Of a stretch of DNA of 64,000 nt, positions 5,765 through 60,160 are shown in pieces. The notes beneath the pieces were generated by a model. It was not told where the DNA came from. It ran no database searches and saw only the letters and a list, made by a program, of their open reading frames with translations. Source of the stretch: Eledone cirrhosa (Eukaryota); the NCBI GenBank assembly GCA_964016885.1, contig OZ024741.1, positions 187,302,001 through 187,366,000 of the forward strand. The letters are read 5' to 3'. Each line of letters opens with the position of its first letter. Within the stretch, counting starts at the first letter, position 1. The position numbers and the translations under genes were made by a program.

Positions 5765-5933
5765 TTGCGAGGGTTTTTTTTATATGAAATCGTGTGTCGA
5801 AACATAGTTAACTCATTTGGTCATCAATGATAAACATTGATGGCCAAATGAATTAACTATGGAGATATAAAAGATTCAGAAGCGAAAACCAACCAAACAG
5901 TGAGTGTGTTCTGTTATTATTTCTGGCAATAAT

Positions 5934-6126: not shown

Positions 6127-6263
6127 TCTGGCAATAATATCACAACAATATCACTCTCCCCAACTATAACAATATATATATTTGAAAAAAGAGAAAAGAA
6201 TGACTTCACTTGTAGTTCGAAAGATGAAGGTAATGACAGTTTGGTTCCATTGTGTCCGGACCT

Positions 6264-11430: not shown

Positions 11431-12385
11431 GTTTTCTTTGGCCACAAGGGCCGTCATATAGGGGACAATACAATGGACAGGAACAGTGGGGTTTTACATT
11501 TAAATCGTGTAAAAATAATGTATATAAACAATAACAATAAATATTAAAAATACGAACAACAAAATTCGCAAGTAGGGAGAGAACCACCCAGGGGCGACTC
11601 AAGTACCCTACCCTGAATCACGCCTCTCATCCTCAAATCAACCAGCTCACAGGCCTTTCTTACAACATTCACCCACCTTTTAGCAAACTTTTGATTGTTT
11701 TAAATTAATCAGAGTCCCAAGAAGCCAGGTTTACTCACTATCCTCTCTACGATGTATCGCATGAGGCAGAGGTTATCGGGTATGGACCTGGTAGGGATTG
11801 CGCAATTTTGCGCCTTCCCTACCAGACCCACGACGACAAGCGCTAACCTCTTCGCTAACACCTTGGCCAAAATCTTAAACTTTGATTTCAACAGAGTTAT
11901 GGGCATGAAATTATCTACAGTATCCCTCTTGTCCTCGTCTTTAGCGTTACTATGCCCCGACTCACAGACCTAGGAATACTCCCGTTTAGCTATCAGTTGC
12001 AGTAGACCGCTTCGAAGAGAACAGAGAACCAGTCTGATGTTTCTACGTAAAACTCGTAGGGAAGACCATCCAAACCGGGTGACTAGCGCCACATACAACC
12101 GGCCAGGGCATCCTGAATCTCGTCTGACGTTATCGGCCTTCCGAAGCACTCGGCATCGGCTGGAGAAAGTCACGGGAGGCAGTCAAGGTAGGAACTGAAG
12201 TTTACCACCATCCCCGAGCCCCCGCCCTCCCCGAACAGTCAAACAAAGTGCGGGCGAAAGGCCGTACACATCTGTCTGGAATCGTTCAGCAGACGTTCGT
12301 CTGAGTCCGTCAAAGACCGAATTGTGGTTTTGTTACCATACTGCGCTTCCACCACACGGGCCCATTAAGCAGCTTTCGTTCCCTG
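11431..12385 (-). mobile_element. Older Tx1-family fragment (RT part, ORF2 C-terminus, 3'UTR), internally deleted
   Basis: Translates to PITLLKSKFKILAKVLAKRLALVV..AQNCAIP..IPDNLCLMRYIVER, homologous to ORF2 above. 3' end GGCCCTTGTGGCCAAAGAAAAC followed by (ATT)n. Confidence 0.88.
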
Positions 12386-12651
12386 ATAAATGGGAAAGCT
12401 TAAATGTATTTGGATTTGTTCTGGAACGTTCCAAGTTCAAATGCTGGGATCCATTATTTGTTTTTCAATTATATAATGACAACCATTGCAGTAAATGACT
12501 AAGAAGTCATTCGCAACTATGTTCTTCAGGTTTCTTCCAACTGTGAAATATCTTGGGAACATGACGTCTCCCATAGACATAGGCTGGCCAAAGCTTTGTG
12601 AGTGAAATTTAGTAGACAAAAACTGTGTGGAAGTCCGATGGAGAGAAGTTG

Positions 12652-30524: not shown

Positions 30525-30915
30525 CATAGCTGCCAACCTCGAAAAACCCAAACAGAGAGTACCATGAAAAAGAAGTGCCCTAAATCGGGGAGAAATGAGG
30601 CAAAATGGGGAGATTTTACATAACTGTTTCTACTTTAGGCACAAGGCCAGCAATTACCCAGTGCATTACTGGTACTTTATTTTATCGACCCCGTAAGGAT
30701 GAAAGGCAAAGTCAACCTCGGCGGGATTTGAACTCAGATCGTAAAGGGACGTAACTAAGCTGGAAAGCATGGCGTCCGACCCTCTACCGATACTGCCAAT
30801 CCACCAGATTTTACATAATGAAAGCTATACCCATTTTCACAAGAGAAGACATCTCTCACCCATAACAAAGTGGGTGGGAGATCTCCCCGTCGGAATGGGA
30901 AAGTTGACAGGTCTG
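30525..30915. mobile_element. hAT-like MITE interrupted by a SINE
   Basis: TIRs CATAGCTGCCAACCT / AAGTTGACAGGTCTG, flanking direct repeat GTAAAAT. The internal SINE has TSD AGATTTTACATAA. Confidence 0.65.
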
Positions 30916-37366: not shown

Positions 37367-37435
<69 letters not shown>

Positions 37436-37696
37436 TTTCTTTATTAACCACAAGGGTTTACATAAAGTAGACATTAAGGACAGTGCAGGACAATGCAGGA
37501 CGGTACAAATGGGCATTTCTGCGTGTAAAAAAACAAAAACAGAGGATGTAACAAAAATAACAATGAAAATAACAATGAAAAAATTCCCCAATAGGGGGGA
37601 GACTTCGGAGGGACATTTGTGGAGAAAGCCCAGTAAAAAGCCACAATGACCCTGACCACCAAGGCAAGTGCCCTCTCCCAGTTTTCCACCTTTAGT

Positions 37697-40600
37697 TTAC
37701 AGATATATACTCAGAGTCGGCCCATTCACTCGGGCCATTCTTGCTTCTCTCACCCATCTTTCAACAAAATGCTGGGAAGAGAGCACTTCCTTCTCTACTC
37801 TGATTTTCCTTTTCAAATGAAATTTGAAAAAGTCAATCAGAGCATCACCGAAGAGGTAAGTGCTCGTCTTCAGCCCTTTCAAACGTGTCCACCATACTAT
37901 CTCTTTCGCCATGGCCACCAGACAGATAAAAACTGCCTGCCCTTCCCGGCTAAAGGAGGAGGGCGGGGCAATCCTCACGATAGACTCAGATGATAGCTGG
38001 ATCCGTCCTAAACGCGACAGCAGGTGTTCGACATAAACCCACAAGTCAGCAATTTTCGGACACTGGACGAGTGCGTGCAGGACGGTTTCGTCGCCCTGCG
38101 CGCATCTCGGACATGCCCGGCTGACGGCACCTCCATGCCTGTAGAGTTTATCCCGAACTGGCAAGGCTCCTCGGTAGCACTGCCAGGCCAGAGATTTCTG
38201 GAAGTTGTCCATAGGCCCTGGCCCGAAAGTTCTTCCGAAGAGATTGGCTAGTTGATTTTCGTCGACGCCTAGAGTTTCCCCAAGTACGTCGTCGCTCTTC
38301 CCCTCCACTAATCCTCTATAGAACGCCGAGGTGGAGTTTCCACCGATCACATTGCCCGATTGGTCGAGGGCTGTGAGCGCCTGAAGACATTCCAGTCTCC
38401 AGGCGCTCCCTCTCGGTCTTCGCTTGACCCAGGACTGCAGCTCCGTCAAGGAAACGAGCTGGGGAAAAACGCGTCTAGCAAACGGCGACCACACCTGATC
38501 ACCGTCGAGGAAGAGGTGGAGATGTCGTAGCCTGAGCGCGTGCCTGCGCATCATCAGCCACGGCATGCCCAGCCCTCCACGTAGCGGGTGTTGACAACAG
38601 ATGGACCGCCTGACCATCGGAGCACGTCCCTTCCACAAAAAGCGAAAGAGCAAACGCTCCAGCGCAGTCAGGCGAGGCTTAGGACAAGGTACGACGGTTA
38701 GGCGGTAGCAGATGACAGACGCGATGTACGCGTTAGCCACCTCCGCTCGACCTTTCAGGGATAGCTTCCTCTCCGCCCATTTCTGGGTGAGAGAAGCCAC
38801 CCTGCTCGTCACCTCGTCCCAGTTTTTGTCCGTCTGGAGGTCCGGACCGAACCAGACCCCTAGCAATTTAACCGGTCCGTCCGTCCAGCGCCCGACGACG
38901 CTGTTGGACGGCATGGACCTGCCTCTCCAGGTGCCGAGCTGCAGGCCCACTGACTTTTCCTGGTTGATCATTGCTCCTGTCACCGCTTCGTATTCTCTTA
39001 GTGTAGTGCCGATCGCCTCGATGTGTTTGGCGTTCGACACCACTACGGTGACATCGTCCGCATATGCTGACACGGATCTTCCGCATCCTAGTTCGCGCGG
39101 GACTCCCCTCAACGTCTCCAGTTTGTGCAGTAATGGCTCGAGAGTCAATACGTACAAGAGGGACGAGAGGGGACATCCTTGGCGGACCGAGCGCATGATG
39201 TTGAACGGTTCCGACAGGTGACCGTTCACTCTCACCACAGAGCAGATGTCGCTGTGCATGGCAGCGATCCAGCCTCTGAAGACGGGCCCAAAGCCAGCCG
39301 CCCTCAGGACTGCCGCTAGGTAACGATGGTCGACCCTATCGAAAGCTTTCGACTGATCTAAATTGATCAAGGACCCACCCGTGCCAGGTTCCCTAGCTAC
39401 CCTCTCTACGATGTATCGCATGAGGTGGAGGTTGTCGTGGATGGATCTGTCGGGAATGGCGCATGTCTGCGCCTCTCCCACCAGACCACCAACGACAAGC
39501 GCCAACCTCTTTGCTAGCACCTTGGCCAAAATCTTAAACTCTGTGTTTAGCAGAGTTATGGGCCGGAAATTGTCTATGTTATCCCCCTTGTTCGGATCCT
39601 TTCTCAGCAGTGCCACCGCTCCTCGGCTCACAGAACTGGGAATTCTCCCGTTCTGTTGCCAGTTGCAGTAGACGTCCGCCAAGAGGCCTCCGAACAAGTC
39701 TGGCATCTGTACGTAAAGTTCATAGGGCAGACCATCCAAACCAGGCGATTTACCCCTTGTGCAGCCAGTCATTGCCTCCCGTACTTCAGCGGCTGTTATC
39801 GGCTTTTCGCAACACCTCGCCTCAGTGGCCGAGAGCCGCGGCAGCCCGTCGAGGTAGACACTAAAGTCCATCCCTCTACCCGGCCCCCCGCTGCCCCCGA
39901 ACAGCTGAGCGAAGTGTCGCTGAAAAGCTTCACACATTTGCCCGGGATCGAGTAGCATGCGCCCGTCGTGGTCCACCAAAGACCGGATCGTGGCTTTGTT
40001 GCCACGACGCGCCTCCGCCACTCGGGCCCATTGAACGGCTTTCGTCCCCTCGTGTCTGAGAGCACGCACCCTAGCTCTGACAACGCAGCCTTCGTGCTTT
40101 GCATTGAAGAATTGGTCAAGGGCCAATTTCGCCGCAAGCACGTCGGTCGCAATGCCTTTGCTAAGCGCCTCGTCTAATTTTCTAACTAGTTCTCCCTCTG
40201 CTCTATTTTTCTCTATTGCTAAAGCCTTACTAAACCTAATCGATTCTATTCTAATCGCTCTTTTCAGAGCAAACCACCACTTGTTGTTGACGATGGCCCC
40301 CGTCAACGCCCGCTTAACTAGTTCGCTAATCCGGTCTCTGTAGGCCTTGCGCGCTGGTAAGGACGCGTTTAGCTTCCAGTAGCCGGGTCCTCGTCTATGA
40401 AGCCTATCTAAGTCAAGCACACAGATCACGAATTTGTGGTCCGTGTAGCTGACTATCTTGAATTGTGGACAGCCTATGCTAGACCTATCTATTTCCCTAC
40501 AAAATACTCTATCTAGATATGATCTGGATGACCCTATGCGGTTTGTCCAAGTCCACATTGGCACATTCGGGAAATCCAATCGGTACCTGTCAGACAGTTC

Positions 40601-41116
40601 AAAACGCCTGAGCAGGTTGGTGAGGCTCTTGCACCCTCCACCCCTATCCGCTAATCCCACACAGTCCCAGCGTGCATCTAAGATCCCGTTCCAGTCGCCC
40701 ACTAACACTAAAGAGCGGGACGTTCCAAGAAAGGTCTCCAGACGCCGGAAGAAATCAGGCCGCCCTGCTCCTGTCGGGGCATAGACGGCCACTAGCCTGA
40801 AAGCTTGCCCGTCTCCGCTGGTCACGTCCAGCACCACCAGCTTACCCTCTGGGTCCAGGAAGATGGCCCGTATGGCGAGATCCAAACCTCTCCGAAAAAG
40901 TACAGCAACTCCTCCACCGGATCCAGGACGGCTGGGAGATGCGTACACATCGTAGCCGCCGAAGATCGGTGCGAAGGCCCGTGCTTCGGAGATTCTGGTC
41001 TCGCTGATGGCCACTACATCTATGTTTAGTGACCTGAGGTCGTTGAGCAGGTGACCCTGCTTCCATGACGACCCCAAGCCACGCGCATTTATGCTGCCTA
41101 TTCTGAGTGAGGTCAT
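37697..41116 (-). CDS. Tx1 ORF2: AP endonuclease + reverse transcriptase + C-terminal zinc-binding domain (1139 aa)
   Basis: APE motifs SINARGL, ISETR, VYAP, GDWN, YLDRV, YTDH. RT motifs KSPGLDG, FRPITLLNTEFKILAK, DQSKAFDRVDH, VRQGCPLS, YADD. C-terminal CPRC..ETVLHALVQC. Confidence 0.97.
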   Translation of the reverse strand: MTSLRIGSINARGLGSSWKQGHLLNDLRSLNIDVVAISETRISEARAFAPIFGGYDVYASPSRPGSGGGVAVLFRRGLDLAIRAIFLDPEGKLVVLDVTSGDGQAFRLVAVYAPTGAGRPDFFRRLETFLGTSRSLVLVGDWNGILDARWDCVGLADRGGGCKSLTNLLRRFELSDRYRLDFPNVPMWTWTNRIGSSRSYLDRVFCREIDRSSIGCPQFKIVSYTDHKFVICVLDLDRLHRRGPGYWKLNASLPARKAYRDRISELVKRALTGAIVNNKWWFALKRAIRIESIRFSKALAIEKNRAEGELVRKLDEALSKGIATDVLAAKLALDQFFNAKHEGCVVRARVRALRHEGTKAVQWARVAEARRGNKATIRSLVDHDGRMLLDPGQMCEAFQRHFAQLFGGSGGPGRGMDFSVYLDGLPRLSATEARCCEKPITAAEVREAMTGCTRGKSPGLDGLPYELYVQMPDLFGGLLADVYCNWQQNGRIPSSVSRGAVALLRKDPNKGDNIDNFRPITLLNTEFKILAKVLAKRLALVVGGLVGEAQTCAIPDRSIHDNLHLMRYIVERVAREPGTGGSLINLDQSKAFDRVDHRYLAAVLRAAGFGPVFRGWIAAMHSDICSVVRVNGHLSEPFNIMRSVRQGCPLSSLLYVLTLEPLLHKLETLRGVPRELGCGRSVSAYADDVTVVVSNAKHIEAIGTTLREYEAVTGAMINQEKSVGLQLGTWRGRSMPSNSVVGRWTDGPVKLLGVWFGPDLQTDKNWDEVTSRVASLTQKWAERKLSLKGRAEVANAYIASVICYRLTVVPCPKPRLTALERLLFRFLWKGRAPMVRRSICCQHPLRGGLGMPWLMMRRHALRLRHLHLFLDGDQVWSPFARRVFPQLVSLTELQSWVKRRPRGSAWRLECLQALTALDQSGNVIGGNSTSAFYRGLVEGKSDDVLGETLGVDENQLANLFGRTFGPGPMDNFQKSLAWQCYRGALPVRDKLYRHGGAVSRACPRCAQGDETVLHALVQCPKIADLWVYVEHLLSRLGRIQLSSESIVRIAPPSSFSREGQAVFICLVAMAKEIVWWTRLKGLKTSTYLFGDALIDFFKFHLKRKIRVEKEVLSSQHFVERWVREARMARVNGPTLSIYL

Positions 41117-41151
41117 GTTTAAAATAGAGTGGAAAAGATGGGAAAGACCAC

Positions 41152-43242
41152 TTACCGTATTTTTGGTAGAGGAGGGATGGTTTTTACATCCCTTTTCACT
41201 TGATCGTCTGGTGAAGGGACCGTTGAATCGTCCCTTCGGCTGGTCGTCGGCTCTTCTAAGAGAATGTCTGAATATACTCTTCGATTAATGGTTCCTCCTA
41301 GGTCCCTGAAATCACCAACTGCGTTGGGGAATTTCGTTTTAATGTTTGTGTATTGTTTCTGTGCTATTTTTAGCAGTCTTATGTTAGTTGGCGTTTTGAT
41401 TGGTGCTGGTATTATGTAGTCCTGTTGTGAAATGTCTGTGTGTTCAATTATGTAAGTCATTAGTTTCTTGTTGTGTGTGTTTATTGCCGTGCATTTGTTT
41501 TTCTGGGGGTGGGGTGTGGTTCTGCTATTTTCTTGTCGTTGTTGCTGGGTGTGTGTGTTTTGTTGTTGTGTTTGCGATGTTGGTGCTTGTGGTGGTGGTG
41601 TTGAAGGTGTTGTTGGCGGTGGGGTTGTCGCCGGTGGTGATGGTGGTGCTGGTGTGGGTGGTGATGGTGTTGGTGGTGTTGCTGCTGTGGGTCTCTTTGC
41701 AGTAGACTTTACCCTTTTCTCATTTCTTTCCTCCCTTTTCAAAGGCGACGATGCGCTGCTTCTGCGTTTGTGCCTTCTTGAGACCTTTTGCCATCCCTCT
41801 CCCACCTCACACTCCATGTCTGATTCTGTAAGGTCGGGGAGGGGTACCAGCTCCACTCTTTCACTTGTTGTTGTTGGTGATGTTTGCACTGGAGTCTCTG
41901 TTGCAGCTGCATTTGGTATTGCTGTTGTTGTTGTTAATATTTCCACTGCTGCTGCTGTCTTTGATTTCCGTGGAGTGGGTATGGGTGCCACGGACCTATC
42001 GTTCCTGGTTGCCGCTTGTCCTGTTGCTGGTAGCCGTGGAACCGGATTCGGGAGGAGGGGGGTTTTCTCCTTTCTCAGGGTCTTCTCGTTGCAGAAGGCC
42101 CTGAGGTGAGTCTTCGATCCACAGCGAAAGCATTTCGGGCGTTTGCCCTCAACACTTATGGGCAGTTGAGTGCCGTTATCGAAGTCTATCACATCCGGGA
42201 TAGCTTCGATGCACTCCTGGTTGGTTTGGATTAGCATCTCAATGGAGGAGCCGACCCAATCTTCTCTTACTTTTTTCTGTACTTGCAGTACAGTTGTTTT
42301 GTCCTCGATTCCGACGAGGACAGACGCGGCCAGCCAAGAAGGGGTCATTCCGGGGGGGACGTGGGTCAGTTTGACCCTCACAATTTTTTGCCCGCAGTAG
42401 GAGGGCACCAACACCATTTCCTCGCTCCTTAGGGTCACTACTGATTGGGCCTTTGCCTCCTGGGGTGTGGCAAAAAGTACGTCTACGGTGGCGTATTTTT
42501 TGCCTCGGGTGATGTGCGTTTTCCTCTGCCACACAGACCCCAAGGCTTTTTGTATTTGGGCCTCTGTGGCTCTTTCCACCCTACGGGATTTTGTACTTAC
42601 TGTACGGTACGTGACCGTACAGTGCTCTTGGGTTTCGAAAAAATTTTTCGCTGCTTTGCAGATTGCTCGGTGTCCGTTCTTTGTCACCATCTTCTTCGCT
42701 TCCTCTAATTCCTCATTTGTTATGAGGATTGTTTCCAAGTTTTTCGCAATACCTGCAAATGAGATTGGTTTGTCTCTGCTGTTGTTGTTGTCGTCAGAGC
42801 TGCTGGTACTTTTGTTGTTGCTGCAGGTACTACGACTACTGCCTCCGCCGCTGTTGCTGTGGTTGTTGTTGGTGTTGCTGCTGCTAATGCTGTTGTTGTT
42901 TATGCTGCTGGTGATGCTGTTGCGGCTGCTACTGTTGTTTTCATTGTCACTGTTGTTATTACGGCTGCTACTGCTATTATTCCTGACGTCAGACGAATGA
43001 ACTGGGTTTTTGTATTTCCCGCACACCTGTTTCGTCGCTGTCGTCGTCGTCGTGGAGAAACTTTGCACGCTTTGCACGAGACTTTTCTTTTCTTTCGTCA
43101 CTTGCGAAAGAGAAGGGAGGGAGAGAGACACATTTAAAGAAGGGAGGGAGAGAGACAATCTTCTCTCTGCTGTAGTGATGATTGAGGAAGAAGAAGACGG
43201 AATGAGTGGGAGTGACGTATGAAATTTCTTTTTCGTAGCCAT
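41152..43242 (-). CDS. Tx1 ORF1, gag-like nucleic-acid-binding protein (696 aa)
   Basis: Long ORF upstream of ORF2 with a CCHC knuckle CFRCGSKTHLRAFC, a Ser/Asn-rich N-terminal tract and a Pro/Thr/Gln-rich C-terminal tract. Confidence 0.92.
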   Translation of the reverse strand: MATKKKFHTSLPLIPSSSSSIITTAERRLSLSLPSLNVSLSLPSLSQVTKEKKSLVQSVQSFSTTTTTATKQVCGKYKNPVHSSDVRNNSSSSRNNNSDNENNSSSRNSITSSINNNSISSSNTNNNHSNSGGGSSRSTCSNNKSTSSSDDNNNSRDKPISFAGIAKNLETILITNEELEEAKKMVTKNGHRAICKAAKNFFETQEHCTVTYRTVSTKSRRVERATEAQIQKALGSVWQRKTHITRGKKYATVDVLFATPQEAKAQSVVTLRSEEMVLVPSYCGQKIVRVKLTHVPPGMTPSWLAASVLVGIEDKTTVLQVQKKVREDWVGSSIEMLIQTNQECIEAIPDVIDFDNGTQLPISVEGKRPKCFRCGSKTHLRAFCNEKTLRKEKTPLLPNPVPRLPATGQAATRNDRSVAPIPTPRKSKTAAAVEILTTTTAIPNAAATETPVQTSPTTTSERVELVPLPDLTESDMECEVGEGWQKVSRRHKRRSSASSPLKREERNEKRVKSTAKRPTAATPPTPSPPTPAPPSPPATTPPPTTPSTPPPQAPTSQTQQQNTHTQQQRQENSRTTPHPQKNKCTAINTHNKKLMTYIIEHTDISQQDYIIPAPIKTPTNIRLLKIAQKQYTNIKTKFPNAVGDFRDLGGTINRRVYSDILLEEPTTSRRDDSTVPSPDDQVKRDVKTIPPLPKIR

Positions 43243-43457
43243 GTTGTTTTTTGTTTAAAATGAAATTTTGGGTACAAAACCCCAATAACTGGTTATTTAA
43301 CCCCGAAGGGCCAAATAACGGACAGAAAGACCCCTCTCACGAGGAGGAGGGTGTCTTTATCAACAATTTGGTTCAAGTTTTAAACAATTTACAATTGTTT
43401 TAACGGTTAAAAATTACTATACCTTACAGAGCCGAGCCTCCGTCAACCATGGCATTC

Positions 43458-43492
<35 letters not shown>

Positions 43493-43762
43493 TAATAATG
43501 ATTTCTTTATTAACCACAAGGGTTTACATAAAGTAGACATTAAGGACAGTGCAGGACAATGCAGGACGGTACAAATGGGCATTTCTGCGTGTAAAAAAAA
43601 CAAAAACAGAGGATGTAACAAAAATAACAATGAAAATAACAATGAAAAATTCCCCAATAGGGGGGAGACTTCGGAGGGACATTTGTGGAGAAAGCCCAGT
43701 AAAAAGCCACAATGACCCTGACCACCAAGGCAAGTGCCCTCTCCCAGTTTTCCACCTTTAGT

Positions 43763-46700
43763 TTACAGATATATACTCAGAGTCGGCCCATTCACTCGGG
43801 CCATTCTTGCTTCTCTCACCCATCTTTCAACAAAATGCTGGGAAGAGAGCACTTCCTTCTCTACTCTGATTTTCCTTTTCAAATGAAATTTGAAAAAGTC
43901 AATCAGAGCATCACCGAAGAGGTAAGTGCTCGTCTTCAGCCCTTTCAAACGTGTCCACCATACTATCTCTTTCGCCATGGCCACCAGACAGATAAAAACT
44001 GCCTGCCCTTCCCGGCTAAAGGAGGAGGGCGGGGCAATCCTCACGATAGACTCAGATGATAGCTGGATCCGTCCTAAACGCGACAGCAGGTGTTCGACAT
44101 AAACCCACAAGTCAGCAATTTTCGGACACTGGACGAGTGCGTGCAGGACGGTTTCGTCGCCCTGCGCGCATCTCGGACATGCCCGGCTGACGGCACCTCC
44201 ATGCCTGTAGAGTTTATCCCGAACTGGCAAGGCTCCTCGGTAGCACTGCCAGGCCAGAGATTTCTGGAAGTTGTCCATAGGCCCTGGCCCGAAAGTTCTT
44301 CCGAAGAGATTGGCTAGTTGATTTTCGTCGACGCCTAGAGTTTCCCCAAGTACGTCGTCGCTCTTCCCCTCCACTAATCCTCTATAGAACGCCGAGGTGG
44401 AGTTTCCACCGATCACATTGCCCGATTGGTCGAGGGCTGTGAGCGCCTGAAGACATTCCAGTCTCCAGGCGCTCCCTCTCGGTCTTCGCTTGACCCAGGA
44501 CTGCAGCTCCGTCAAGGAAACGAGCTGGGGAAAAACGCGTCTAGCAAACGGCGACCACACCTGATCACCGTCGAGGAAGAGGTGGAGATGTCGTAGCCTG
44601 AGCGCGTGCCTGCGCATCATCAGCCACGGCATGCCCAGCCCTCCACGTAGCGGGTGTTGACAACAGATGGACCGCCTGACCATCGGAGCACGTCCCTTCC
44701 ACAAAAAGCGAAAGAGCAAACGCTCCAGCGCAGTCAGGCGAGGCTTAGGACAAGGTACGACGGTTAGGCGGTAGCAGATGACAGACGCGATGTACGCGTT
44801 AGCCACCTCCGCTCGACCTTTCAGGGATAGCTTCCTCTCCGCCCATTTCTGGGTGAGAGAAGCCACCCTGCTCGTCACCTCGTCCCAGTTTTTGTCCGTC
44901 TGGAGGTCCGGACCGAACCAGACCCCTAGCAATTTAACCGGTCCGTCCGTCCAGCGCCCGACGACGCTGTTGGACGGCATGGACCTGCCTCTCCAGGTGC
45001 CGAGCTGCAGGCCCACTGACTTTTCCTGGTTGATCATTGCTCCTGTCACCGCTTCGTATTCTCTTAGTGTAGTGCCGATCGCCTCGATGTGTTTGGCGTT
45101 CGACACCACTACGGTGACATCGTCCGCATATGCTGACACGGATCTTCCGCATCCTAGTTCGCGCGGGACTCCCCTCAACGTCTCCAGTTTGTGCAGTAAT
45201 GGCTCGAGAGTCAATACGTACAAGAGGGACGAGAGGGGACATCCTTGGCGGACCGAGCGCATGATGTTGAACGGTTCCGACAGGTGACCGTTCACTCTCA
45301 CCACAGAGCAGATGTCGCTGTGCATGGCAGCGATCCAGCCTCTGAAGACGGGCCCAAAGCCAGCCGCCCTCAGGACTGCCGCTAGGTAACGATGGTCGAC
45401 CCTATCGAAAGCTTTCGACTGATCTAAATTGATCAAGGACCCACCCGTGCCAGGTTCCCTAGCTACCCTCTCTACGATGTATCGCATGAGGTGGAGGTTG
45501 TCGTGGATGGATCTGTCGGGAATGGCGCATGTCTGCGCCTCTCCCACCAGACCACCAACGACAAGCGCCAACCTCTTTGCTAGCACCTTGGCCAAAATCT
45601 TAAACTCTGTGTTTAGCAGAGTTATGGGCCGGAAATTGTCTATGTTATCCCCCTTGTTCGGATCCTTTCTCAGCAGTGCCACCGCTCCTCGGCTCACAGA
45701 ACTGGGAATTCTCCCGTTCTGTTGCCAGTTGCAGTAGACGTCCGCCAAGAGGCCTCCGAACAAGTCTGGCATCTGTACGTAAAGTTCATAGGGCAGACCA
45801 TCCAAACCAGGCGATTTACCCCTTGTGCAGCCAGTCATTGCCTCCCTTACTTCAGCGGCTGTTATCGGCTTTTCGCAACACTTCGCCTCAGTGGCCGAGA
45901 GCCGCGGCAGTCCGTCGAGGTAGACACTAAAGTCCATCCCTCTACCCGGCCCCCCGCTGCCCCCGAACAGCTGAGCGAAGTGTCGCTGAAAAGCTTCACA
46001 CATTTGCCCGGGATCGAGTAGCATGCGCCCGTCGTGGTCCACCAAAGACCGGATCGTGGCTTTGTTGCCACGACGCGCCTCCGCCACTCGGGCCCATTGA
46101 ACGGCTTTCGTCCCCTCGTGTCTGAGAGCACGCACCCTAGCTCTGACAACGCAGCCTTCGTGCTTTGCATTGAAGAATTGGTCAAAGGCCAATTTCGCCG
46201 CAAGCACGTCGGTCGCAATGCCTTTGCTAAGCGCCTCGTCTAATTTTCTAACTAGTTCTCCCTCTGCTCTATTTTTCTCTATTGCTAAAGCCTTACTAAA
46301 CCTAATCGATTCTATTCTAATCGCTCTTTTCAGAGCAAACCACCACTTGTTGTTGACGATGGCCCCCGTCAACGCCCGCTTAACTAGTTCGCTAATCCGG
46401 TCTCTGTAGGCCTTGCGCGCTGGTAAGGACGCGTTTAGCTTCCAGTAGCCGGGTCCTCGTCTATGAAGCCTATCTAAGTCAAGCACACAGATCACGAATT
46501 TGTGGTCCGTGTAGCTGACTATCTTGAATTGTGGACAGCCTATGCTAGACCTATCTATTTCCCTACAAAATACTCTATCTAGATATGATCTGGATGACCC
46601 TATGCGGTTTGTCCAAGTCCACATTGGCACATTCGGGAAATCCAATCGGTACCTGTCAGACAGTTCAAAACGCCTGAGCAGGTTGGTGAGGCTCTTGCAC

Positions 46701-47182
46701 CCTCCACCCCTATCCGCTAATCCCACACAGTCCCAGCGTGCATCTAAGATCCCGTTCCAGTCGCCCACTAACACTAAAGAGCGCGACGTTCCAAGAAAGG
46801 TCTCCAGACGCCGGAAGAAATCAGGCCGCCCTGCTCCTGTCGGGGCATAGACGGCCACTAGCCTGAAAGCTTGCCCGTCTCCGCTGGTCACGTCCAGCAC
46901 CACCAGCTTACCCTCTGGGTCCAGGAAGATGGCCCGTATGGCGAGATCCAAACCTCTCCGAAAAAGCACAGCAACTCCTCCACCCGATCCAGGACGGCTG
47001 GGAGATGCGTACACATCGTAGCCGCCGAAGATCGGTGCGAAGGCCCGTGCTTCGGAGATTCTGGTCTCGCTGATGGCCACTACATCTATGTTTAGTGACC
47101 TGAGGTCGTTGAGCAGGTGACCCTGCTTCCATGACGACCCCAAGCCACGCGCATTTATGCTGCCTATTCTGAGTGAGGTCAT
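43763..47182 (-). CDS. Tx1 ORF2 (APE-RT, 1139 aa), copy 2
   Basis: Same motifs as copy 1. Differs at KLALDQ/KLAFDQ and EARCC/EAKCC. Confidence 0.97.
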   Translation of the reverse strand: MTSLRIGSINARGLGSSWKQGHLLNDLRSLNIDVVAISETRISEARAFAPIFGGYDVYASPSRPGSGGGVAVLFRRGLDLAIRAIFLDPEGKLVVLDVTSGDGQAFRLVAVYAPTGAGRPDFFRRLETFLGTSRSLVLVGDWNGILDARWDCVGLADRGGGCKSLTNLLRRFELSDRYRLDFPNVPMWTWTNRIGSSRSYLDRVFCREIDRSSIGCPQFKIVSYTDHKFVICVLDLDRLHRRGPGYWKLNASLPARKAYRDRISELVKRALTGAIVNNKWWFALKRAIRIESIRFSKALAIEKNRAEGELVRKLDEALSKGIATDVLAAKLAFDQFFNAKHEGCVVRARVRALRHEGTKAVQWARVAEARRGNKATIRSLVDHDGRMLLDPGQMCEAFQRHFAQLFGGSGGPGRGMDFSVYLDGLPRLSATEAKCCEKPITAAEVREAMTGCTRGKSPGLDGLPYELYVQMPDLFGGLLADVYCNWQQNGRIPSSVSRGAVALLRKDPNKGDNIDNFRPITLLNTEFKILAKVLAKRLALVVGGLVGEAQTCAIPDRSIHDNLHLMRYIVERVAREPGTGGSLINLDQSKAFDRVDHRYLAAVLRAAGFGPVFRGWIAAMHSDICSVVRVNGHLSEPFNIMRSVRQGCPLSSLLYVLTLEPLLHKLETLRGVPRELGCGRSVSAYADDVTVVVSNAKHIEAIGTTLREYEAVTGAMINQEKSVGLQLGTWRGRSMPSNSVVGRWTDGPVKLLGVWFGPDLQTDKNWDEVTSRVASLTQKWAERKLSLKGRAEVANAYIASVICYRLTVVPCPKPRLTALERLLFRFLWKGRAPMVRRSICCQHPLRGGLGMPWLMMRRHALRLRHLHLFLDGDQVWSPFARRVFPQLVSLTELQSWVKRRPRGSAWRLECLQALTALDQSGNVIGGNSTSAFYRGLVEGKSDDVLGETLGVDENQLANLFGRTFGPGPMDNFQKSLAWQCYRGALPVRDKLYRHGGAVSRACPRCAQGDETVLHALVQCPKIADLWVYVEHLLSRLGRIQLSSESIVRIAPPSSFSREGQAVFICLVAMAKEIVWWTRLKGLKTSTYLFGDALIDFFKFHLKRKIRVEKEVLSSQHFVERWVREARMARVNGPTLSIYL

Positions 47183-47217
47183 GTTTAAAATAGAGTGGAA
47201 AAGATGGGAAAGACCAC

Positions 47218-49299
47218 TTACCGTATTTTTGGTAGAGGAGGGATGGTTTTTACATCCCTTTTCACTTGATCGTCTGGTGAAGGGACCGTTGAATCGTCCC
47301 TTCGGCTGGTCGTCGGCTCTTCTAAGAGAATGTCTGAATATACTCTTCGATTAATGGTTCCTCCTAGGTCCCTGAAATCACCAACTGCGTTGGGGAATTT
47401 CGTTTTAATGTTTGTGTATTGTTTCTGTGCTATTTTTAGGGGTCTTATGTTAGTTGGCGTTTTGATTGGTGCTGGTATTATGTAGTCCTGTTGTGAAATG
47501 TCTGTGTGTTCAATTATGTAAGTCATTAGTTTCTTGTTGTGTGTGTTTATTGCCGTGCATTTGTTTTTCTGGGGGTGGGGTGTGGTTCTGCTATTTTCTT
47601 GTCGTTGTTGCTGGGTGTGTGTGTTTTGTTGTTGTGTTTGCGATGTTGGTGCTTGTGGTGGTGGTGTTGAAGGTGTTGTTGGCGGTGGGGTTGTCGCCGG
47701 TGGTGATGGTGGTGCTGGTGTGGGTGGTGATGGTGTTGGTGGTGTTGCTGCTGTGGGTCTCTTTGCAGTAGACTTTACCCTTTTCTCATTTCTTTCCTCC
47801 CTTTTCAAAGGCGACGATGCGCTGCTTCTGCGTTTGTGCCTTCTTGAGACCTTTTGCCATCCCTCTCCCACCTCACACTCCATGTCTGATTCTGTAAGGT
47901 CGGGGAGGGGTACCAGCTCCACTCTTTCACTTGTTGTTGTTGGTGATGTTTGCACTGGAGTCTCTGTTGCAGCTGCATTTGGTATTGCTGTTGTTGTTGT
48001 TAATATTTCCACTGCTGCTGCTGTCTTTGATTTCCGTGGAGTGGGTATGGGTGCCACGGACCTATCGTTCCTGGTTGCCGCTTGTCCTGTTGCTGGTAGC
48101 CGTGGAACCGGATTCGGGAGGAGGGGGGTTTTCTCCTTTCTCAGGGTCTTCTCGTTGCAGAAGGCCCTGAGGTGAGTCTTCGATCCACAGCGAAAGCATT
48201 TCGGGCGTTTGCCCTCAACACTTATGGGCAGTTGAGTGCCGTTATCGAAGTCTATCACATCCGGGATAGCTTCGATGCACTCCTGGTTGGTTTGGATTAG
48301 CATCTCAATGGAGGAGCCGACCCAATCTTCTCTTACTTTTTTCTGTACTTGCAGTACAGTTGTTTTGTCCTCGATTCCGACGAGGACAGACGCGGCCAGC
48401 CAAGAAGGGGTCATTCCGGGGGGGACGTGGGTCAGTTTGACCCTCACAATTTTTTGCCCGCAGTAGGAGGGCACCAACACCATTTCCTCGCTCCTTAGGG
48501 TCACTACTGATTGGGCCTTTGCCTCCTGGGGTGTGGCAAAAAGTACGTCTACGGTGGCGTATTTTTTGCCTCGGGTGATGTGCGTTTTCCTCTGCCACAC
48601 AGACCCCAAGGCTTTTTGTATTTGGGCCTCTGTGGCTCTTTCCACCCTACGGGATTTTGTACTTACTGTACGGTACGTGACCGTACAGTGCTCTTGGGTT
48701 TCGAAAAAATTTTTCGCTGCTTTGCAGATTGCTCGGTGTCCGTTCTTTGTCACCATCTTCTTCGCTTCCTCTAATTCCTCATTTGTTATGAGGATTGTTT
48801 CCAAGTTTTTCGCAATACCTGCAAATGAGATTGGTTTGTCTCTGCTGTTGTTGTTGTCGTCAGAGCTGCTGGTACTTTTGTTGTTGCTGCAGGTACTACG
48901 ACTACTGCCTCCGCCGCTGTTGCTGTGGTTGTTGTTGGTGTTGCTGCTGCTAATGCTGTTGTTGTTTATGCTGCTGGTGATGCTGTTGCGGCTGCTACTG
49001 TTGTTTTCATTGTCACTGTTGTTATTACGGCTGCTACTGCTATTATTCCTGACGTCAGACGAATGAACTGGGTTTTTGTATTTCCCGCACACCTGTTTCG
49101 TCGCTGTCGTCGTCGTCGTGGAGAAACTTTGCACGAGACTTTTCTTTTCTTTCGTCACTTGCGAAAGAGAAGGGAGGGAGAGAGACACATTTAAAGAAGG
49201 GAGGGAGAGAGACAATCTTCTCTCTGCTGTAGTGATGATTGAGGAAGAAGAAGACGGAATGAGTGGGAGTGACGTATGAAATTTCTTTTTCGTAGCCAT
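47218..49299 (-). CDS. Tx1 ORF1 (693 aa), copy 2
   Basis: Same as copy 1 except that it lacks one VQS repeat and has IRPLK in place of IRLLK. Confidence 0.92.
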   Translation of the reverse strand: MATKKKFHTSLPLIPSSSSSIITTAERRLSLSLPSLNVSLSLPSLSQVTKEKKSLVQSFSTTTTTATKQVCGKYKNPVHSSDVRNNSSSSRNNNSDNENNSSSRNSITSSINNNSISSSNTNNNHSNSGGGSSRSTCSNNKSTSSSDDNNNSRDKPISFAGIAKNLETILITNEELEEAKKMVTKNGHRAICKAAKNFFETQEHCTVTYRTVSTKSRRVERATEAQIQKALGSVWQRKTHITRGKKYATVDVLFATPQEAKAQSVVTLRSEEMVLVPSYCGQKIVRVKLTHVPPGMTPSWLAASVLVGIEDKTTVLQVQKKVREDWVGSSIEMLIQTNQECIEAIPDVIDFDNGTQLPISVEGKRPKCFRCGSKTHLRAFCNEKTLRKEKTPLLPNPVPRLPATGQAATRNDRSVAPIPTPRKSKTAAAVEILTTTTAIPNAAATETPVQTSPTTTSERVELVPLPDLTESDMECEVGEGWQKVSRRHKRRSSASSPLKREERNEKRVKSTAKRPTAATPPTPSPPTPAPPSPPATTPPPTTPSTPPPQAPTSQTQQQNTHTQQQRQENSRTTPHPQKNKCTAINTHNKKLMTYIIEHTDISQQDYIIPAPIKTPTNIRPLKIAQKQYTNIKTKFPNAVGDFRDLGGTINRRVYSDILLEEPTTSRRDDSTVPSPDDQVKRDVKTIPPLPKIR

Positions 49300-49514
49300 G
49301 TTGTTTTTTGTTTAAAATGAAATTTTGGGTACAAAACCCCAATAACTGGTTATTTAACCCCGAAGGGCCAAATAACGGACAGAAAGACCCCTCTCACGAG
49401 GAGGAGGGTGTCTTTATCAACAATTTGGTTCAAGTTTTAAACAATTTACAATTGTTTTAACGGTTAAAAATTACTATACCTTACAGAGCCGAGCCTCCGT
49501 CAACCATGGCATTC

Positions 49515-49549
<35 letters not shown>

Positions 49550-54564: not shown

Positions 54565-57500
54565 GAATGCCATGGCTCGGCTCTGTAAGGTATAGTAATT
54601 TTTAACCGCTATAACAATTGTAAATTGTTTAAAACTTGAACCAAATTGTAGATAAAAACACCCTCTTCCTCGTGAGAGGGGTCTTTCTGCCCGTTATTTC
54701 ACCCTTCGGCGTTAAATAACCGCTTATTGGGGTTTTGTGCCCAATATTCATTTTAAACCGTAAAAAAAACATGGCTACAAAAATGAATTTTCACAAGTCA
54801 CTCCCACTCATTCCGTCTTCTTCTTCCTCAATAGTCACTACATCAGAGAGACTTTTTGTCTCTCTCCCTCCCTTCTCTAAATGTGGTGTCGCATCGGCCC
54901 CAAGCGACGCCATTAAAGAAACAGAAAAATATATTTTCTGGTAGCTTTCACCAAGAGAGCGTGCATTCCATGGAACATTTCTCCACGACGACGACAACGA
55001 CGAAAAATGTGTGCGGTAAATACGTAAAGCAATTTCATTCGTCTGACGTCATGAAGAATAGCAGCAGCAGCCGTAATAACAGCACCAGCAGCAACAGTGA
55101 CAAGGAAAACACTGGTAGCAGCCGCAACAACATCAGCAGCAGCATAAACAACAACAGCAGCAACAGCAACAACAACAGCAGCATCAGCAACAACAACAAC
55201 AACAACCACTGCAACAGCGGCGGCGGTCGTAGTACCAGCAGCAACAACAAAAGTAACAGCAGCTCTGACGACAACAACAACAACAACAAGAAGAAAGAAA
55301 AACCAATCTCGTTTGCAGGTATCGCAAAGAACCTGGAAACCATCCTCATAACAAATGAGGAATTACAGGAAGCAAAGAAGATGGTGACGAAAATCGGACA
55401 CCGATCAATCTGCAAGGCAGCCGAAAAATGTTTCGAAACCCAACAGCACTGTACGGTCACGTACCGTACAGTAAGCACAGCATCACGTAGGGTTGAAAGA
55501 GCCACAGAGGCTCAAATACAAAAAGCCTTAGGGTCTGTGTGGAAGCGGAAAACGCATATCACCCGAGGCAAGAAATATGCCACCGTGGACGTGCATTTTG
55601 CCACATCCCAGGAGGCAAAGGCTCAATTCTTAGTGACCCTAAGGAGTGAGGAAATGGTGTTGGTGTCCTCCTACTGCAGGCAAAAAATTGTAATGGCCCT
55701 CCAAAAAAGGGATGGCCCCTTCTTGGCTGGCCGCGTCTGTCCTCGTCGGAATCGAGGACAGAACAACTGTACTGCAAGTACTGAAAAAAGTACGAGAAGA
55801 TTGGGTAGGCACCTCCATTGAGATGTTAATGCAAACCAACCAGGAGTGCATCGAAGCTATCCCGGATATGATAGACTTCGATAACGGCACTCAACTGCCC
55901 ATAAGGGTTGAGGGCAAACACCCGAAATGCTTTGGCTGTGGGTCGAAGACTCACCTCAGGGCCTTCTGCAATGAGAAGACCCTGAGAAAGGAGAAAACCC
56001 CCCTCCTTCCAAAACCGGTTCCACTGCTACCAGCAACAGGGCAGGCGGCAAACAGGTAGGATAGGTCCGTGGCACCCATACCCACGCCACGGAAATCAAG
56101 AACAGCAGCAGCAGTGGAAGTATTAACAACAACAACAGTAATACCAAATGCAGCTGCAACAGAGACTCCACTGCAACCATCACCAACAAGAATAAGTGAA
56201 AGAGTGGAGCTGGTACCCCTCCCCGACATCACAGAATCGGACATGGAGTGTGAGGTGGGAGAGGGATGGCAAAAGGTCGCAAGAAGGCACAAACACAGAA
56301 GCAGCGCATCGTCGCCTTCGAAAGGGGAGGGAAGAAATGAAAAAAGAGTAAAGGCTACTGCAAAGAGACTTACAGCAGCAACATCACCAACACCATCTCC
56401 ACCCACACTAGCACCACCATCACCACCGGCGGCAACCCCACCGCCAACAACAACAACACCTTCAACACCCCCACCTCAAGAACCAACATCGCAAACACAA
56501 CAACAAAACACACACACCCAGCAACAACGACAAGAAAATAGCAGAACCACACCGCACCCCCAGAAAAAGAAATGCACAGCAATAAATACACACAACAAGA
56601 AACTAATGACTTACATAATTGAACACACAGATATTTCACAGCACGACTACATAATACCAGCACCAATCAAAACACCAGCGAACATAAGACTGTTAAGAAT
56701 AAAACAGAAACAATACACAAACATTAAAATAAAATTCCCCAACGCAGTTGTTGATTTCAGAGACCTAGGAGGGACACTCAACCGGAGAGTATACTCGGAT
56801 ATACTCTCAGAAGAGCCGACGACCAGCTGAAGGGACGATTCACCAGACGATCAAGTAGAAAGGGATGGAGAAACCATCCTTCCTATACGAGAAGTAAGGT
56901 AAGTGGTCTTTCCCATCTTTTCCACTCCTTTTCAACATGACCTCACTCAGAATAGGCAGCATAAATGCGCGTCGTTTGGGGTCGTCATGGAAGCAGGGCC
57001 ACCTGCTCAACGACCTCAGGTCACTAAACATAGATGTAGTGGCCATCAGCGAGACCAGAATCTCCGAAGCAGGGGCCTTCGCACCGATCTTCGGTGCTAC
57101 GATGTGTACGCATCTCCCAGCCGTCCGGGATCGGGGGGAGGGAGTTGCTGTGCTTTTTCGGAGAGGTTTGGATCTCGCCATACGGGCCATCTTCCTGGAC
57201 CCAGAAGGTAAGTTGGTGGTGCTAGACGTGACCAGCGGAGACGAGCAAGCTTTCAGGCTAGTGGCCGTCTATGCCCCGACAGGAGCAGGGCGGCCTGAAT
57301 TCTTCCGGCGTCTGGAGACCTTTCTTGGAACGTCCCGCTCTTTAGTGTTAGGGGGTGACTGGAACGGGATCTTAGATGCAATCTGGGACTGTGTGGGATT
57401 AGCGGATAGGGGAGAAGGGTGAAAGAGCCTCACCAACCTGCTCAGGCGTTTTGAACTGTCTGACAGGTACCGATTGGATTTCCCGAATGTGCCAATGTGG

Positions 57501-60160
57501 ACTTGGACAAACCGCATCGGGTCATCCAGATCATATCTAGATAGAGTATTTTGTAGGGAAATAGATAGGTCTAGCATAGGCTGTCCACAATTCAAGATAG
57601 TCAGCTACACGGACCACAAATTCGTGATCTGTGTGCTTGACTTAGATAGGCTTCATAGACGAGGACCCGACTACTGGAAGCTAAACGCGTCCTTACCAGC
57701 GCCCAAGGTCTACAGAGACCGGATTAGCGAACTAGTTAAGCGGGCGTTGACGGGGGCCATCGTCAACAAGTAGTGGTTTGCTCTGAAAAGAGCGATTAGA
57801 ATAGAGTCCATTAGGTTTAGTAAGGCTTTAGCTATAGAGAAAAATAGAGCAGAGGGAGAACTAGTTAGAAAATTAGACGTGGTGCTTAGCAAAGGCATCG
57901 CGACCGACGTACTTGCGGCGAAATTGGCCCTTGACCAATTATTCAATGCAAAGCACGAAGGCTGCGTTGTCAGAGCTAGGGTGCGTGCTCTCAGACACGA
58001 GGGGACGAAAGCCGTTCAATGGGCCCGAGTGGCGGAGGCGCGTCGTGGCAACAAAGCCACACTCCGGTCTTTGGTGGACCACGACGGGCGCATGCTACTC
58101 GATCCCGGGAAAATGTGTGAAGCTTTTCAGCGACACTTCGCTCAGCTTTTCGAGTGCAGCGGCGGGCCGGATCGAGGGATGGACTTCAGTGTCTACCTCG
58201 ACGGATTGCCGTGGCTCTCGGCCACTGAGGCGGAGTGTTGCGAAAAGCTGATAACAGCCGCTGAAGTAAGGGAGGCAATGACTGGCTGCACAAGGGGTAA
58301 ATCGTCTGGTTTGGATGGTCTGCCCTATGAACTTTACGCACAGATTCCAGACTTGTTCGGAGGCCTCTTGGCGGACCTCTACTGCAACTGGCAACGAACG
58401 GGAGAATTCCCAGCTCTGTGAGCCGAAGAGCGGTGGCGCTGCTGAGAAAGGATCCGAACAAGGGGGATAACATAGATAATTTCAGGCCCATAACTCTACT
58501 AAACACAGAGTTCAAGATTTTGGCCAAGGTGCTACCAAAGAGGTTGGCGCTTGTCGTTGGTGGTCTGGTGGGAGAGGCGCAGACGTGCGCCATTCGCGAC
58601 AGATTCATCCACGACAACCTCCACTTCATGCGATACATCGTAGAGAGGGTAGCTAGGGAACCTGGCACGGGTGGATCCTTGATCAATTTAGATCAGTCGA
58701 AAGCTTTCGATAGGGTCGACCATCGTTACCTAGCGGCAGTCCTGAGGCTATGGGCCCGTCTTCAGAGGCTGGATCGCTGCCATGCACAGCGACATCTGCT
58801 CTGTGGTGAGAGTGAACGGTCACCTTTCGGAACCGTTCAACATCATGCGCTCGGTCCGCCAAGGATGTCCCCTGTCGTCCCTCTTGTACGTATTGACTCT
58901 CGAGCCATTACTGCACAAACTGGAGACGTTGAGGGGGGTCCTGTGTGAACTACGATGCGGAAGATCCGTGTCAGCATATGCGGACGATATCACCGTAGTG
59001 GTGTCGAACGCCAAACACATCGAGGCGATCGGCACTACACTAAGAGAATACGAAGCGGTTACAGGAGCAATGATCAACCAGGAAAGGTCAGTGGGCCTGC
59101 AGCTCGGCACCTGGAGAGGCAGGTCCATGCCGTCCAACAGCGTCGTCGGGCGCTGGACGGACGGACCGGTTAAATTGCTAGGGGTCTGGTTCGGTCCAGA
59201 CCTCCAGACGGACAAAAACTGGGACGAGGTGACGAGCAGGGTGGCTTCTCTCACCCAGAAATGGGCCGAGAGGAAGCTATCCCTGAAAGGTCGAGCGGAG
59301 GTGGCCAACGCGTACATCGCGTCCGTCATCTACTACCGCCTGACCGTCGTACCTTGTCCTAAACTCCGCCTGACTGCGCTGGAGCGTTTGCTCTTTCGCT
59401 TTTTGTGGAAGGGACGTGCTCCGATGGTCAGGCGGTCCATCTGCTGTCAACACCCGCTACGTGGAGGGCTGGGCATGCCGTGGCTGATGATGCGCAGACA
59501 CGCGCTCAGGCTACGACATCTCCACCTCTTCCTCGACAGTGATCAGGTGTGGTCGCCGTTTGCTAGACACGTTTTTCCCCAGCTCTCAGCTGGGTTTTTC
59601 CCCGGTTTTTCCCCGGATCCAGCTATCAGCTGAGTCCATCGTGAGGATTGCCCCGCCCTCTTCCTATAGCCGGGAAGGGCAGGCAGTTTTTATCTGTCTG
59701 GTGGCCATGGCGAAAGAGATAGTATGGTGGACACGTTTGAAAGGGCTGAAGACTTACCTCTTCGGTGATGCCCTGATTAACTTTTTCAAATTTCATTTGA
59801 AAAGGAAAATCAGGGTAGAGAGGGAAGTGCTCTCTTCCCAGCATTTTGTTGAAAGATGGGTGAGAGAAGCAAGTATGGCCCAAATGAATGGGCCTTCTCT
59901 GAGTATGTGTCTGTAAATTAAAGGTGGAAAACTGGGAGAGGGCACTTGCCCTGGTGGTCAGGGTCACTGTGGTCTTTTAATGGGCTTTCTCCACAAATGT
60001 CCCTCGGAAGTCTCCCCCCTATTGGGGAATTTTTTCTTTGTTATTTTATTACATCCTCTGTTTTTTTACACGCAGAAATGCCCATTTGTACCGTCCTGTA
60101 TTGTCCTGTACTGTCCTTAATGTCTACTTTATGTAAACCCTTGTGGTTAATAAAGAAAAC
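54565..60160 (+). mobile_element. Decayed full-length Tx1 copy 3 (frameshifts, stops, internal deletion)
   Basis: Same 5' start (GAATGCCATGG) and 3' end as copies 1/2. ORF1 and ORF2 are broken into fragments (54856, 55712, 56069, 56937, 57474, 57879, 58418, 58782, 59539). (ATT)n on both sides. Confidence 0.93.

Follow-up and report, generated by a model that had tools for sequence, protein, structure and literature searches.

The dominant SINE in the genome of Eledone cirrhosa very probably has a Tx1-like LINE lineage as its partner, and both elements are present in the 64,000-nt stretch of DNA analyzed here (the window). The original prediction had paired the two, and at the level of the lineage the pairing is well supported: SINE and Tx1 have in common their terminal 22 nt, a 16-nt spacing, and a flush target site duplication (TSD) led by ATTAT, and no better LINE was found among those sampled. 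The SINE likely borrows the Tx1 copying enzyme, because its RNA carries the hairpin predicted for that lineage, equally far from an identical landing sequence. The flush ATTAT-led TSD is the best evidence for the partnership. As to how the SINE is copied, the sequences lead us to favor, with some reserve, a model in which ORF2 of the ATT-targeting Tx1 subfamilies would copy it by gripping a 3-bp CUUGU hairpin as the recognition signal; granted the Tx1 partnership, there is a good chance that the hairpin is the determinant. We looked for the features of a stringent SINE-LINE pair, namely a common 3' terminal sequence, a stem-loop with compensatory changes, the same insertion signature, and overlapping periods of activity.

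The LINE appears to be a Tx1-like member of the L1 group, a label taken from its architecture, its CCHC-knuckle ORF1, and its targeting rather than from a reverse transcriptase tree. Two intact copies stand in tandem in the window (Table 1), and their ORF2 proteins differ at 2 amino acids. ORF2 has the APE, reverse transcriptase, and C-terminal zinc-binding domains of the Tx1 clade (Pfam PF03372, PF00078, and PF13966). It is nearer to L1 than to other clades: its best match among solved structures is human L1 ORF2p (E value of 3e-52, compared with 1e-21 for R2), and its identity to the CR1 and RTE elements of the same genome is 22 to 28%. A target preference is also evident, with ATTAT at 58 of 68 Tx1 3' junctions. 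ORF1 matched no Pfam family at an E value of ≤0.001; an ORF1 with a CCHC knuckle is typical of Tx1.

Several features of these copies are recorded here in their own right. Full-length Tx1 copies have ATT tracts at their 5' junctions too. The tracts at 43458-43499, between the tandem copies, and at 49515-49559, 5' of copy 2, have an identical single interruption, which suggests either duplication of a long tract or unequal recombination. Longer head-to-tail Tx1 arrays, with a spacing of about 6.07 kb, occur elsewhere in the genome. At four loci the sequence is 94 to 96% identical to the window Tx1 from the ORF2 region on, and the 5' part is unrelated, an apparent replacement of ORF1 and the 5' untranslated region (UTR). 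The C-CUCGU-G hairpin of the Tx1 5' UTR adjoins a long 12-bp hairpin. The decayed Tx1 is followed directly by three SINE copies, head to tail. Dong-R4, with (AAT)n in sense, and a LINE bearing RNase H were seen tail to tail with Tx1, with (ATT)n in sense, sharing one microsatellite.

Table 1. Positions of the Tx1-like LINE and SINE features in the window
Feature	Position	Strand	Remarks
Tx1-like LINE copy 1, AACC subfamily	37434..43457	-	Full-length, two open frames
ORF2 of copy 1	37697..41116	-	1139 aa counted from first ATG; APE endonuclease, reverse transcriptase, C-terminal zf-RVT
ORF1 of copy 1	41152..43242	-	696 aa; single CX2CX4HX4C knuckle visible in translation
3' hairpin of copy 1, AACC-CUUGU-GGUU	37446..37458	-	Followed by AATAAA-GAAA-TC; 16 nt from loop end to target ATTAT
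(ATT)22 tract at 3' junction of copy 1	37368..37433	-	Target and/or tail
Tx1-like LINE copy 2	43500..49514	-	Full-length, 99.6% identity to copy 1; flanked on either side by ATT tracts; hairpin at 43512-43524
Tx1-like LINE copy 3	54565..60160	+	About 91% identical, broken frames; same hairpin at 60136-60148
Decayed Tx1, GGCC lineage	11431..12388	-	Internal deletion; hairpin at 11440-11452
C-CUCGU-G hairpin in Tx1 5' UTR	43336..43346; also 49393-49403	-	Related to the 3' motif
Short-form SINE, GCCA subfamily	63299..63479	+	Hairpin at 63455-63467; TSD ATTATACC
Short-form SINE, young GCCT subfamily	30625..30806	-	Three stem pairs only
SINE with exact 18-nt TSD	5916..6138	+	ATTAT start flush with 3' end
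Long-form SINE	11210..11407	-	Extra segment ahead of the same terminal motif

The SINE is about 180 nt long and has 21 matches in the window; it is short, non-coding, dispersed, 5'-truncated, and flanked by TSDs. A density of 48 short-type ends per 600 kb extrapolates to about 240,000 copies genome-wide. Its head looks tRNA-like, which makes it a candidate tRNA-derived SINE: there is a B-box match, GTTCAAATC, at position 74, and a near match to the A box is visible where the strict pattern gives none. None of the copies was called a tRNA by ARAGORN or Rfam. We take the element to resemble the octopus tRNA-SINEs OK, OR1, and OR2. Among 121 SINE 3' ends, 53 were of the paired GCCA type and 31 of the GCCT type, which has a T.T mismatch, with 20 other variants and 17 unparsed. 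The GCCT subfamily is the younger (median distance from its own majority, 2.2% versus 5.5% for GCCA; n = 14 and 24). Both partners have young copies, the SINE down to 0.6% from the majority and Tx1 at 99.6% identity, and several Tx1 subfamilies are young; their periods of activity overlap, in a comparison of small samples in which the Tx1 sets are biased to young copies.

Other repeats and a tRNA were noted in the window as well. An inverted duplication of 329 nt (98.8% identity; positions 82-410 versus 30617-30945) takes in a SINE together with roughly 140 nt of the adjoining 5' flank. A tRNA-Ser(GGA) was found at 25783-25856 (+) by both ARAGORN and Rfam, a degenerate tandem array lies at 19455-21811, and a tandem unit of about 470 nt occurs at two sites, 16791-17654 and 35950-37243.

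The insertion signature was compared between the SINE, Tx1, and the ATT-tailed CR1 family. All seven SINE TSDs listed in the original prediction (at 5916, 10983, 14346, 21950, 35604, 52066, and 63283) are indeed duplications and start with ATTAT in element sense; in the window as a whole, 7 of 15 SINEs have a flush TSD. In 60 evenly spaced 10-kb stretches of the genome, with a threshold of ≥9 nt, an exact flush TSD of 9 to 18 nt was present in 20 of 44 SINE copies, 18 of these TSDs being led by ATTAT; the control with mismatched flanks gave a mean of 0.8. For truncated Tx1 insertions, taken from 30 AACC ends picked for having only two ATT units, the 5' junction was in view in 15, and a script found a flush TSD in 8 of them; by eye, 6 were clean, 13 to 17 nt long and ATTAT-led, one with a single mismatch. 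The ATT-tailed CR1 family had a flush TSD at none of 46 junctions, 25 of which had been selected like the Tx1 set (14 of 60 loci were dropped since the 5' junction fell off the locus, and one locus was counted twice, leaving 45 distinct). By Fisher's test, Tx1 differed from CR1 (P = 9e-5), as did the SINE (P = 3e-8), and the P value for the SINE against Tx1 was 0.77. SINE and Tx1 thus have the same insertion signature. Four of the truncated Tx1 insertions are just 25 to 38 nt long and end at or slightly 5' of the hairpin.

The terminal motifs are found where they had been reported: AACC-CTTGT-GGTT at 37446-37458 (-) and 60136-60148 (+), GGCC-CTTGT-GGCC at 11440-11452 (-), and TGGC-CTTGT-GCCA at 63455-63467 (+). 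A further AACC-CTTGT-GGTT, at 43512-43524 (-), belongs to tandem copy 2. Exact matches in the 3.0-Gb genome numbered 9,671 for the AACC-type Tx1 end, 2,878 for the GGCC hairpin, and 44,749 for the 30-nt SINE tail, and the reversed patterns gave 0, 5, and 0; since the counts lie far above these controls, the ends are family features and not the chance property of single copies. The motif of the old Tx1 at 11440 is there as described, in a decayed copy whose relatives read GGCC-AATAAATGAAATC.

Two earlier statements about the tail had to be given up. The SINE had been credited with an ATT tail of its own; it ends in GAAACA, and the ATTAT that follows is the start of the TSD (median of 2 ATT units, n = 82). 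Nor is (ATT)n diagnostic of the partnership: an abundant CR1 family ends in it too, and we rejected the tail as evidence for that reason. ATT tracts are usually longer at Tx1 than at SINE ends (median, 5 versus 2 units), which speaks against the partnership. No poly(A) of 8 or more follows any of 82 SINE and 68 Tx1 ends.

Loci around motif matches and zf-RVT matches revealed at least seven Tx1 stem types. Those before (ATT)n are AACC/GGTT, GGCC/GGCC, GGCC/GGCT, and AGCC/GGCC; those before (ATCT)n are CGCC/GGCA, CGCC/GGCT, and TGCC/GGCT. In an analysis of 13 genome rows and 4 database proteins, the C-terminal parts of Tx1 ORF2 grouped as a single clade in which the ATCT types made up a supported branch; between subfamilies these parts differ by 20 to 35%. 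The hairpin is retained in the ATCT-targeting sister clan (5,079 matches to the pattern, some double-counted), so that a clan ending in (ATCT)n is seen with its target switched and its RNA handle unchanged. SINE ends before TATCTATC number only 114 genome-wide, and ATTAT still leads in the majority of the ones listed. Mobilization of the SINE by the ATCT clan is therefore unsupported, despite the shared hairpin.

The 4-bp stem had been described as paired throughout. This is true of the inner 3 bp, which pair in all 11 representatives; the fourth pair forms in only 5 of the 11, is absent in 4 of 7 Tx1 subfamilies, and is broken in the youngest SINE subfamily. Covariation was analyzed in 11 rows, one per stem type: seven Tx1, one truncated Tx1-like end, and three SINE forms. 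The closing C-G pair is invariant in all of them. At stem pair 2, Tx1 has C-G where the SINE has G-C, both sides having changed with pairing kept, and stem pair 3 is G-C except in the AACC subfamily, where it is A-U. These are two compensatory events in total, and an alternative reading of the SINE state is a GGCC stem that has lost one base pair. The covariation score was 0.377, with 0 of 500 shuffles as high and 0.164 for the best slid control; the rows are related and were picked by stem type, so the shuffle result is not a probability. The loop and the spacing are identical across the Tx1 subfamilies and are retained in both long and short SINE forms, in which the AATAAA between them has drifted. 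The stem-loop covaries across families, and the fold is absent from the structures predicted for full-length SINE RNA.

In ungapped, 3'-anchored comparisons, the SINE forms are identical to the AACC and AGCC Tx1 ends at 14 to 17 of the 22 terminal bases (shuffle P ≤ 0.0003) and to the one-base-longer GGCC and GGCT ends at 10 to 12; for CR1, RTE, BovB-like, and Dong ends the number is 2 to 7. The stretch in common is about 22 nt and at most about 35 nt, with no similarity between SINE and Tx1 farther upstream of the shared tail. A common 3' terminal sequence is therefore present, but it is shorter than in most described pairs; bivalve SINE-LINE pairs, in the available text of PMC11481361, have 35 to 61 bp in common. 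Counted from the end of the loop, the first ATTA(T/A) follows at a distance of 16 nt in 82 of 105 SINE ends, and in ATT-type Tx1 ends the distance is 16 nt in 31 of 48 and 17 nt in 10 of 48.

When the terminal 40 nt were aligned locally, the GGCC and AGCC types scored 24 to 31 versus 18 to 20 for AACC (22 to 32 for the GGCC, AGCC, and ATCT types together), and a GGCC/AGCC-type Tx1 subfamily is the probable source from which the SINE acquired its tail. This better alignment also favors a reading in which the partnership lies in the past or is that of a sister subfamily, the SINE being driven by GGCC/GGCT/AGCC Tx1 elements and not by the AACC copies in the window. The GGCT subfamily has near-identical copies (in a selection-biased sample), and the divergence between the ORF2 C-terminal parts noted above would fit such a division of labor. 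The loop and spacing, on the other hand, are the same throughout the subfamilies, and AACC is the commonest exact end found and leaves a SINE-type TSD. We regard the exclusion of the AACC subfamily as rather doubtful, although it keeps some weight; this judgment concerns that exclusion, and the reading overlaps with the one we prefer, copying of the SINE by ORF2 of ATT-targeting Tx1 subfamilies. Judged from their sequences, the intact AACC copies in the window are plausible drivers of the SINE.

Folding predictions bear on whether the hairpin itself is recognized. Tx1 hairpins mostly form: pairing in the AACC copy was 0.5 to 0.9 across five contexts, and two GGCC-type copies fell to 0.02 to 0.25 in some contexts. 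In three short-form SINE copies the pairing probability was 0.0 to 0.3 with ≥40 upstream bases, because the 5' arm is drawn into a stem lying upstream, and in long-form copies it ranged from 0 to 0.99. The SINE hairpin is missing from the minimum-energy structure of both full-length SINEs folded. None of the 40- and 60-nt ends was more stable than its shuffles (z from -1.6 to +1.0), and thermodynamic stability was rejected as evidence for the hairpin, there being no excess over shuffles. It is in the weak predicted folding of the SINE that the stringent reading is most vulnerable. Such folding is what one would expect if Tx1 ORF2 mobilized the SINE through primary sequence (CCUUGUG, GAAA), or mainly through pairing of AUUAU with the target, and not through a folded hairpin; the hairpin would then serve the LINE itself, for instance beside the AAUAAA signal, and be a relic in the SINE. 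Besides the hairpin that goes unpredicted in full-length RNA, where a longer upstream stem competes for the 5' arm, this alternative draws on the loss of the fourth pair from the youngest SINE subfamily, on the loss of AATAAA from the SINE, and on the crocodilian SINEU, tied to Tx1-Mar by its target and with a SINEU-1 3' half that has no LINE match in the available text of PMC4494074. It does not readily account for stem pair 2, which in the SINE differs from all Tx1 on both sides and is still paired, or for a loop and spacing that persist in SINEs of both the long and the short form though the intervening AATAAA drifted. We consider it unlikely, and recognition of the folded hairpin by Tx1 ORF2 remains our preferred model.

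A non-Tx1 LINE whose 3' end matched the SINE tail better would speak against the partnership, and none was found among the eight families sampled. For this survey the genome was searched with Pfam and with proteins, and about 2 Mb of its DNA was used; the 3' ends were those of four CR1-like families, RTE, BovB-like, Dong-R4, and the RNase H-bearing LINE, with L2, Penelope, Hero, R2, rare families, and RTE-X-like ends outside it. C-CTTGT-G is absent from the 3' ends of all eight, and the hairpin motif from six Dong copies inspected. RTE, with (GAT)n, BovB-like, with (ATGT)n, Dong-R4, with (AAT)n, the RNase H-bearing LINE, with (CAA)n, and two further CR1 families, with (AATTG)n and (AAATG)n, were rejected as partners since their ends differ. 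The ATT-tailed CR1, with 7,411 exact ends, was rejected on its 0 of 46 flush TSDs and 2 or 3 of 22 terminal identities. A second CR1 family, with 3,850 ends of the form GGC-CUGG-GCC, scored 20 to 24 against the SINE tail (P = 0.003 to 0.04); all 20 copies end in TCAAAGTT repeats, with (TA)n-rich DNA next in nearly all and ATTAT in none. It was rejected for a weak sequence match and for a tail and target that differ, with the 5' junction in view for 1 of 20 copies. A short remnant of this GGC-CTGG-GCC/TCAAAGTT family lies in the window at 15019-15042 (+).

Searches for further carriers of the motif gave a similar picture. No third family with a SINE/Tx1-type end was found in 1.36 Mb, and 60 loci with a variant motif comprised 55 SINEs, 4 Tx1 copies, and 1 bare SINE tail. 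A supposed Tx1 subfamily combining the SINE GGC/GCC stem with AATAAA (152 genome matches) was rejected, all 30 matches inspected being SINE mutants. Among distant L1/Tx1 relatives in metagenomes, 12 of 38 loci were inspected and showed no motif, several being without a 3' end; identity was about 26 to 31% where they aligned end to end, and one ends in AATAAA plus poly(A). It is thus quite improbable that the SINE has its true, or its main, partner in another LINE, whether the ATT-tailed CR1, the GGC-CUGG-GCC CR1, or a rare or extinct family outside the sample, with the Tx1 match a convergence on a common target: the abundance and (ATT)n end of the first, the SINE-like GGC/GCC stem of the second, and the partial nature of the survey are outweighed by the missing flush TSDs and few identities, the TCAAAGTT ends that never precede ATTAT, the other repeat tails, and the variant-motif loci that all proved to be SINE or Tx1.

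The Tx1 partnership can be cast as a series of steps. ORF2 would bind the C-CUUGU-G stem-loop, and, as the TSDs suggest, its APE domain would nick the strand opposite ATTAT. The freed DNA end could then pair with AUUAU 16 nt 3' of the loop in the RNA, the AUUAU coming from the TSD or ATT tract of the donor copy. With such pairing at AUUAU, reverse transcription would begin inside the RNA, and poly(A) would therefore not be copied. A second nick about 9 to 18 nt further on would complete the insertion, its outcome being the ATTAT-led TSD flush with the element end. As new copies regenerate ATTAT sites, SINEs and Tx1 elements would stack head to tail. The mechanism would account for the fixed 3' end, the lack of poly(A), the head-to-tail stacks, and the exclusion of the SINE from ATCT sites.

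The known systems are compared here as they appear in the available text of the sources cited. Among the closest are the maize SINEs ZmSINE2 and ZmSINE3 and sorghum SINEs with LINE1-1_ZM (PMC3472496, PMC3747384), likewise an L1-group LINE and tRNA-SINEs with a 3' hairpin in common. There, too, the loop is conserved and the stem variable with compensatory changes, and stringent recognition was inferred (PMC3472496). They differ in being a plant L1, whereas the LINE here is an animal Tx1-like element, and in having about 50 nt in common (PMC3472496) compared with about 22 here; the present hairpin, moreover, is coupled to microsatellite targeting and a fixed 16-nt target distance. Ohshima lists 3 SINEs with L1 tails in 58 pairs, from maize/sorghum and Chlamydomonas, the Chlamydomonas L1-group pair sharing a tail and those of maize and sorghum a hairpin (PMC3472496, PMC3747384). 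In ZfL2-1/ZfL2-2 and UnaL2/UnaSINE (PMC4176376), ORF2 reads a 3' stem-loop in a loop-specific, stem-tolerant manner, with a repeat tail and no poly(A); these L2 systems belong to another clade, and recognition was shown there by assay, whereas here the stem has 3 bp and the evidence is from sequence.

Target preference is common in the Tx1 clade (PMC4494074). Kibi, Koshi, and the crocodilian microsatellite Tx1 are Tx1-type APE elements in simple repeats, as here, but their targets are (TC)n, (TTC)n, (TTCC)n, and (TTTC)n, as opposed to (ATT)n and, in the sister clan, (ATCT)n; the available text of PMC4494074 names no SINE partner for them. It assigns the crocodilian SINEU to Tx1-Mar through a common target preference, and this is the only link between an animal SINE and Tx1 that we found in the literature. 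In SINEU the head is of snRNA type and the tail is poly(A), and the SINEU-1 3' half is without a LINE match (PMC4494074), whereas the present SINE has a tRNA-like head, no poly(A), and a tail that itself matches Tx1. Octopus tRNA-SINEs OK, OR1, and OR2 are cited in PMC4758252, PMC4824008, and PMC3531059. Octopus vulgaris has active L1-Tx1, CR1, RTE, and Dong-R4 together with abundant SINEs, the same set as the present genome, and the available text mentions no SINE partners (PMC13282606). The partners named for mollusc SINEs are CR1, CR1-Zenon, L2, and Nimb (PMC4758252, PMC4824008, PMC11481361), and for bivalves PMC11481361 lists only these. In the literature covered, to which Repbase Reports, Dfam entries, most subscription papers, and supplements do not belong, we found no description of a SINE sharing its tail with Tx1, and none is named in the available text of PMC5786205, PMC3531059, PMC8967140, and PMC13282606. 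Tail sharing between L1-group LINEs and SINEs was found described, in these partial sources, only for plants and algae.

The concept of stringent recognition is already established, and what is added here is a further instance, from a clade where it was not expected, and not a new mechanism. L1-group LINEs stand out as the exception to the sharing of tails between SINEs and LINEs. We propose tentatively, and at slightly less than even confidence, that an animal Tx1/L1-group ORF2 may be stringent and independent of poly(A), with a minimal 3-bp CUUGU hairpin serving as a ruler that places the site of RNA-target pairing 16 nt away; the hairpin would have stayed fixed through the split of the ATT and ATCT clans, and the AUUAU flanking the SINE, not the hairpin, would set which clan carries it. 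If the partnership is real, it names the engine of the dominant SINE of this genome. The pair would then support the view that stringent recognition has persisted in animal L1-group elements, would make this view testable with intact young ORF2 copies, and would provide a natural system for studying shifts of L1-group elements between stringent and relaxed RNA recognition.
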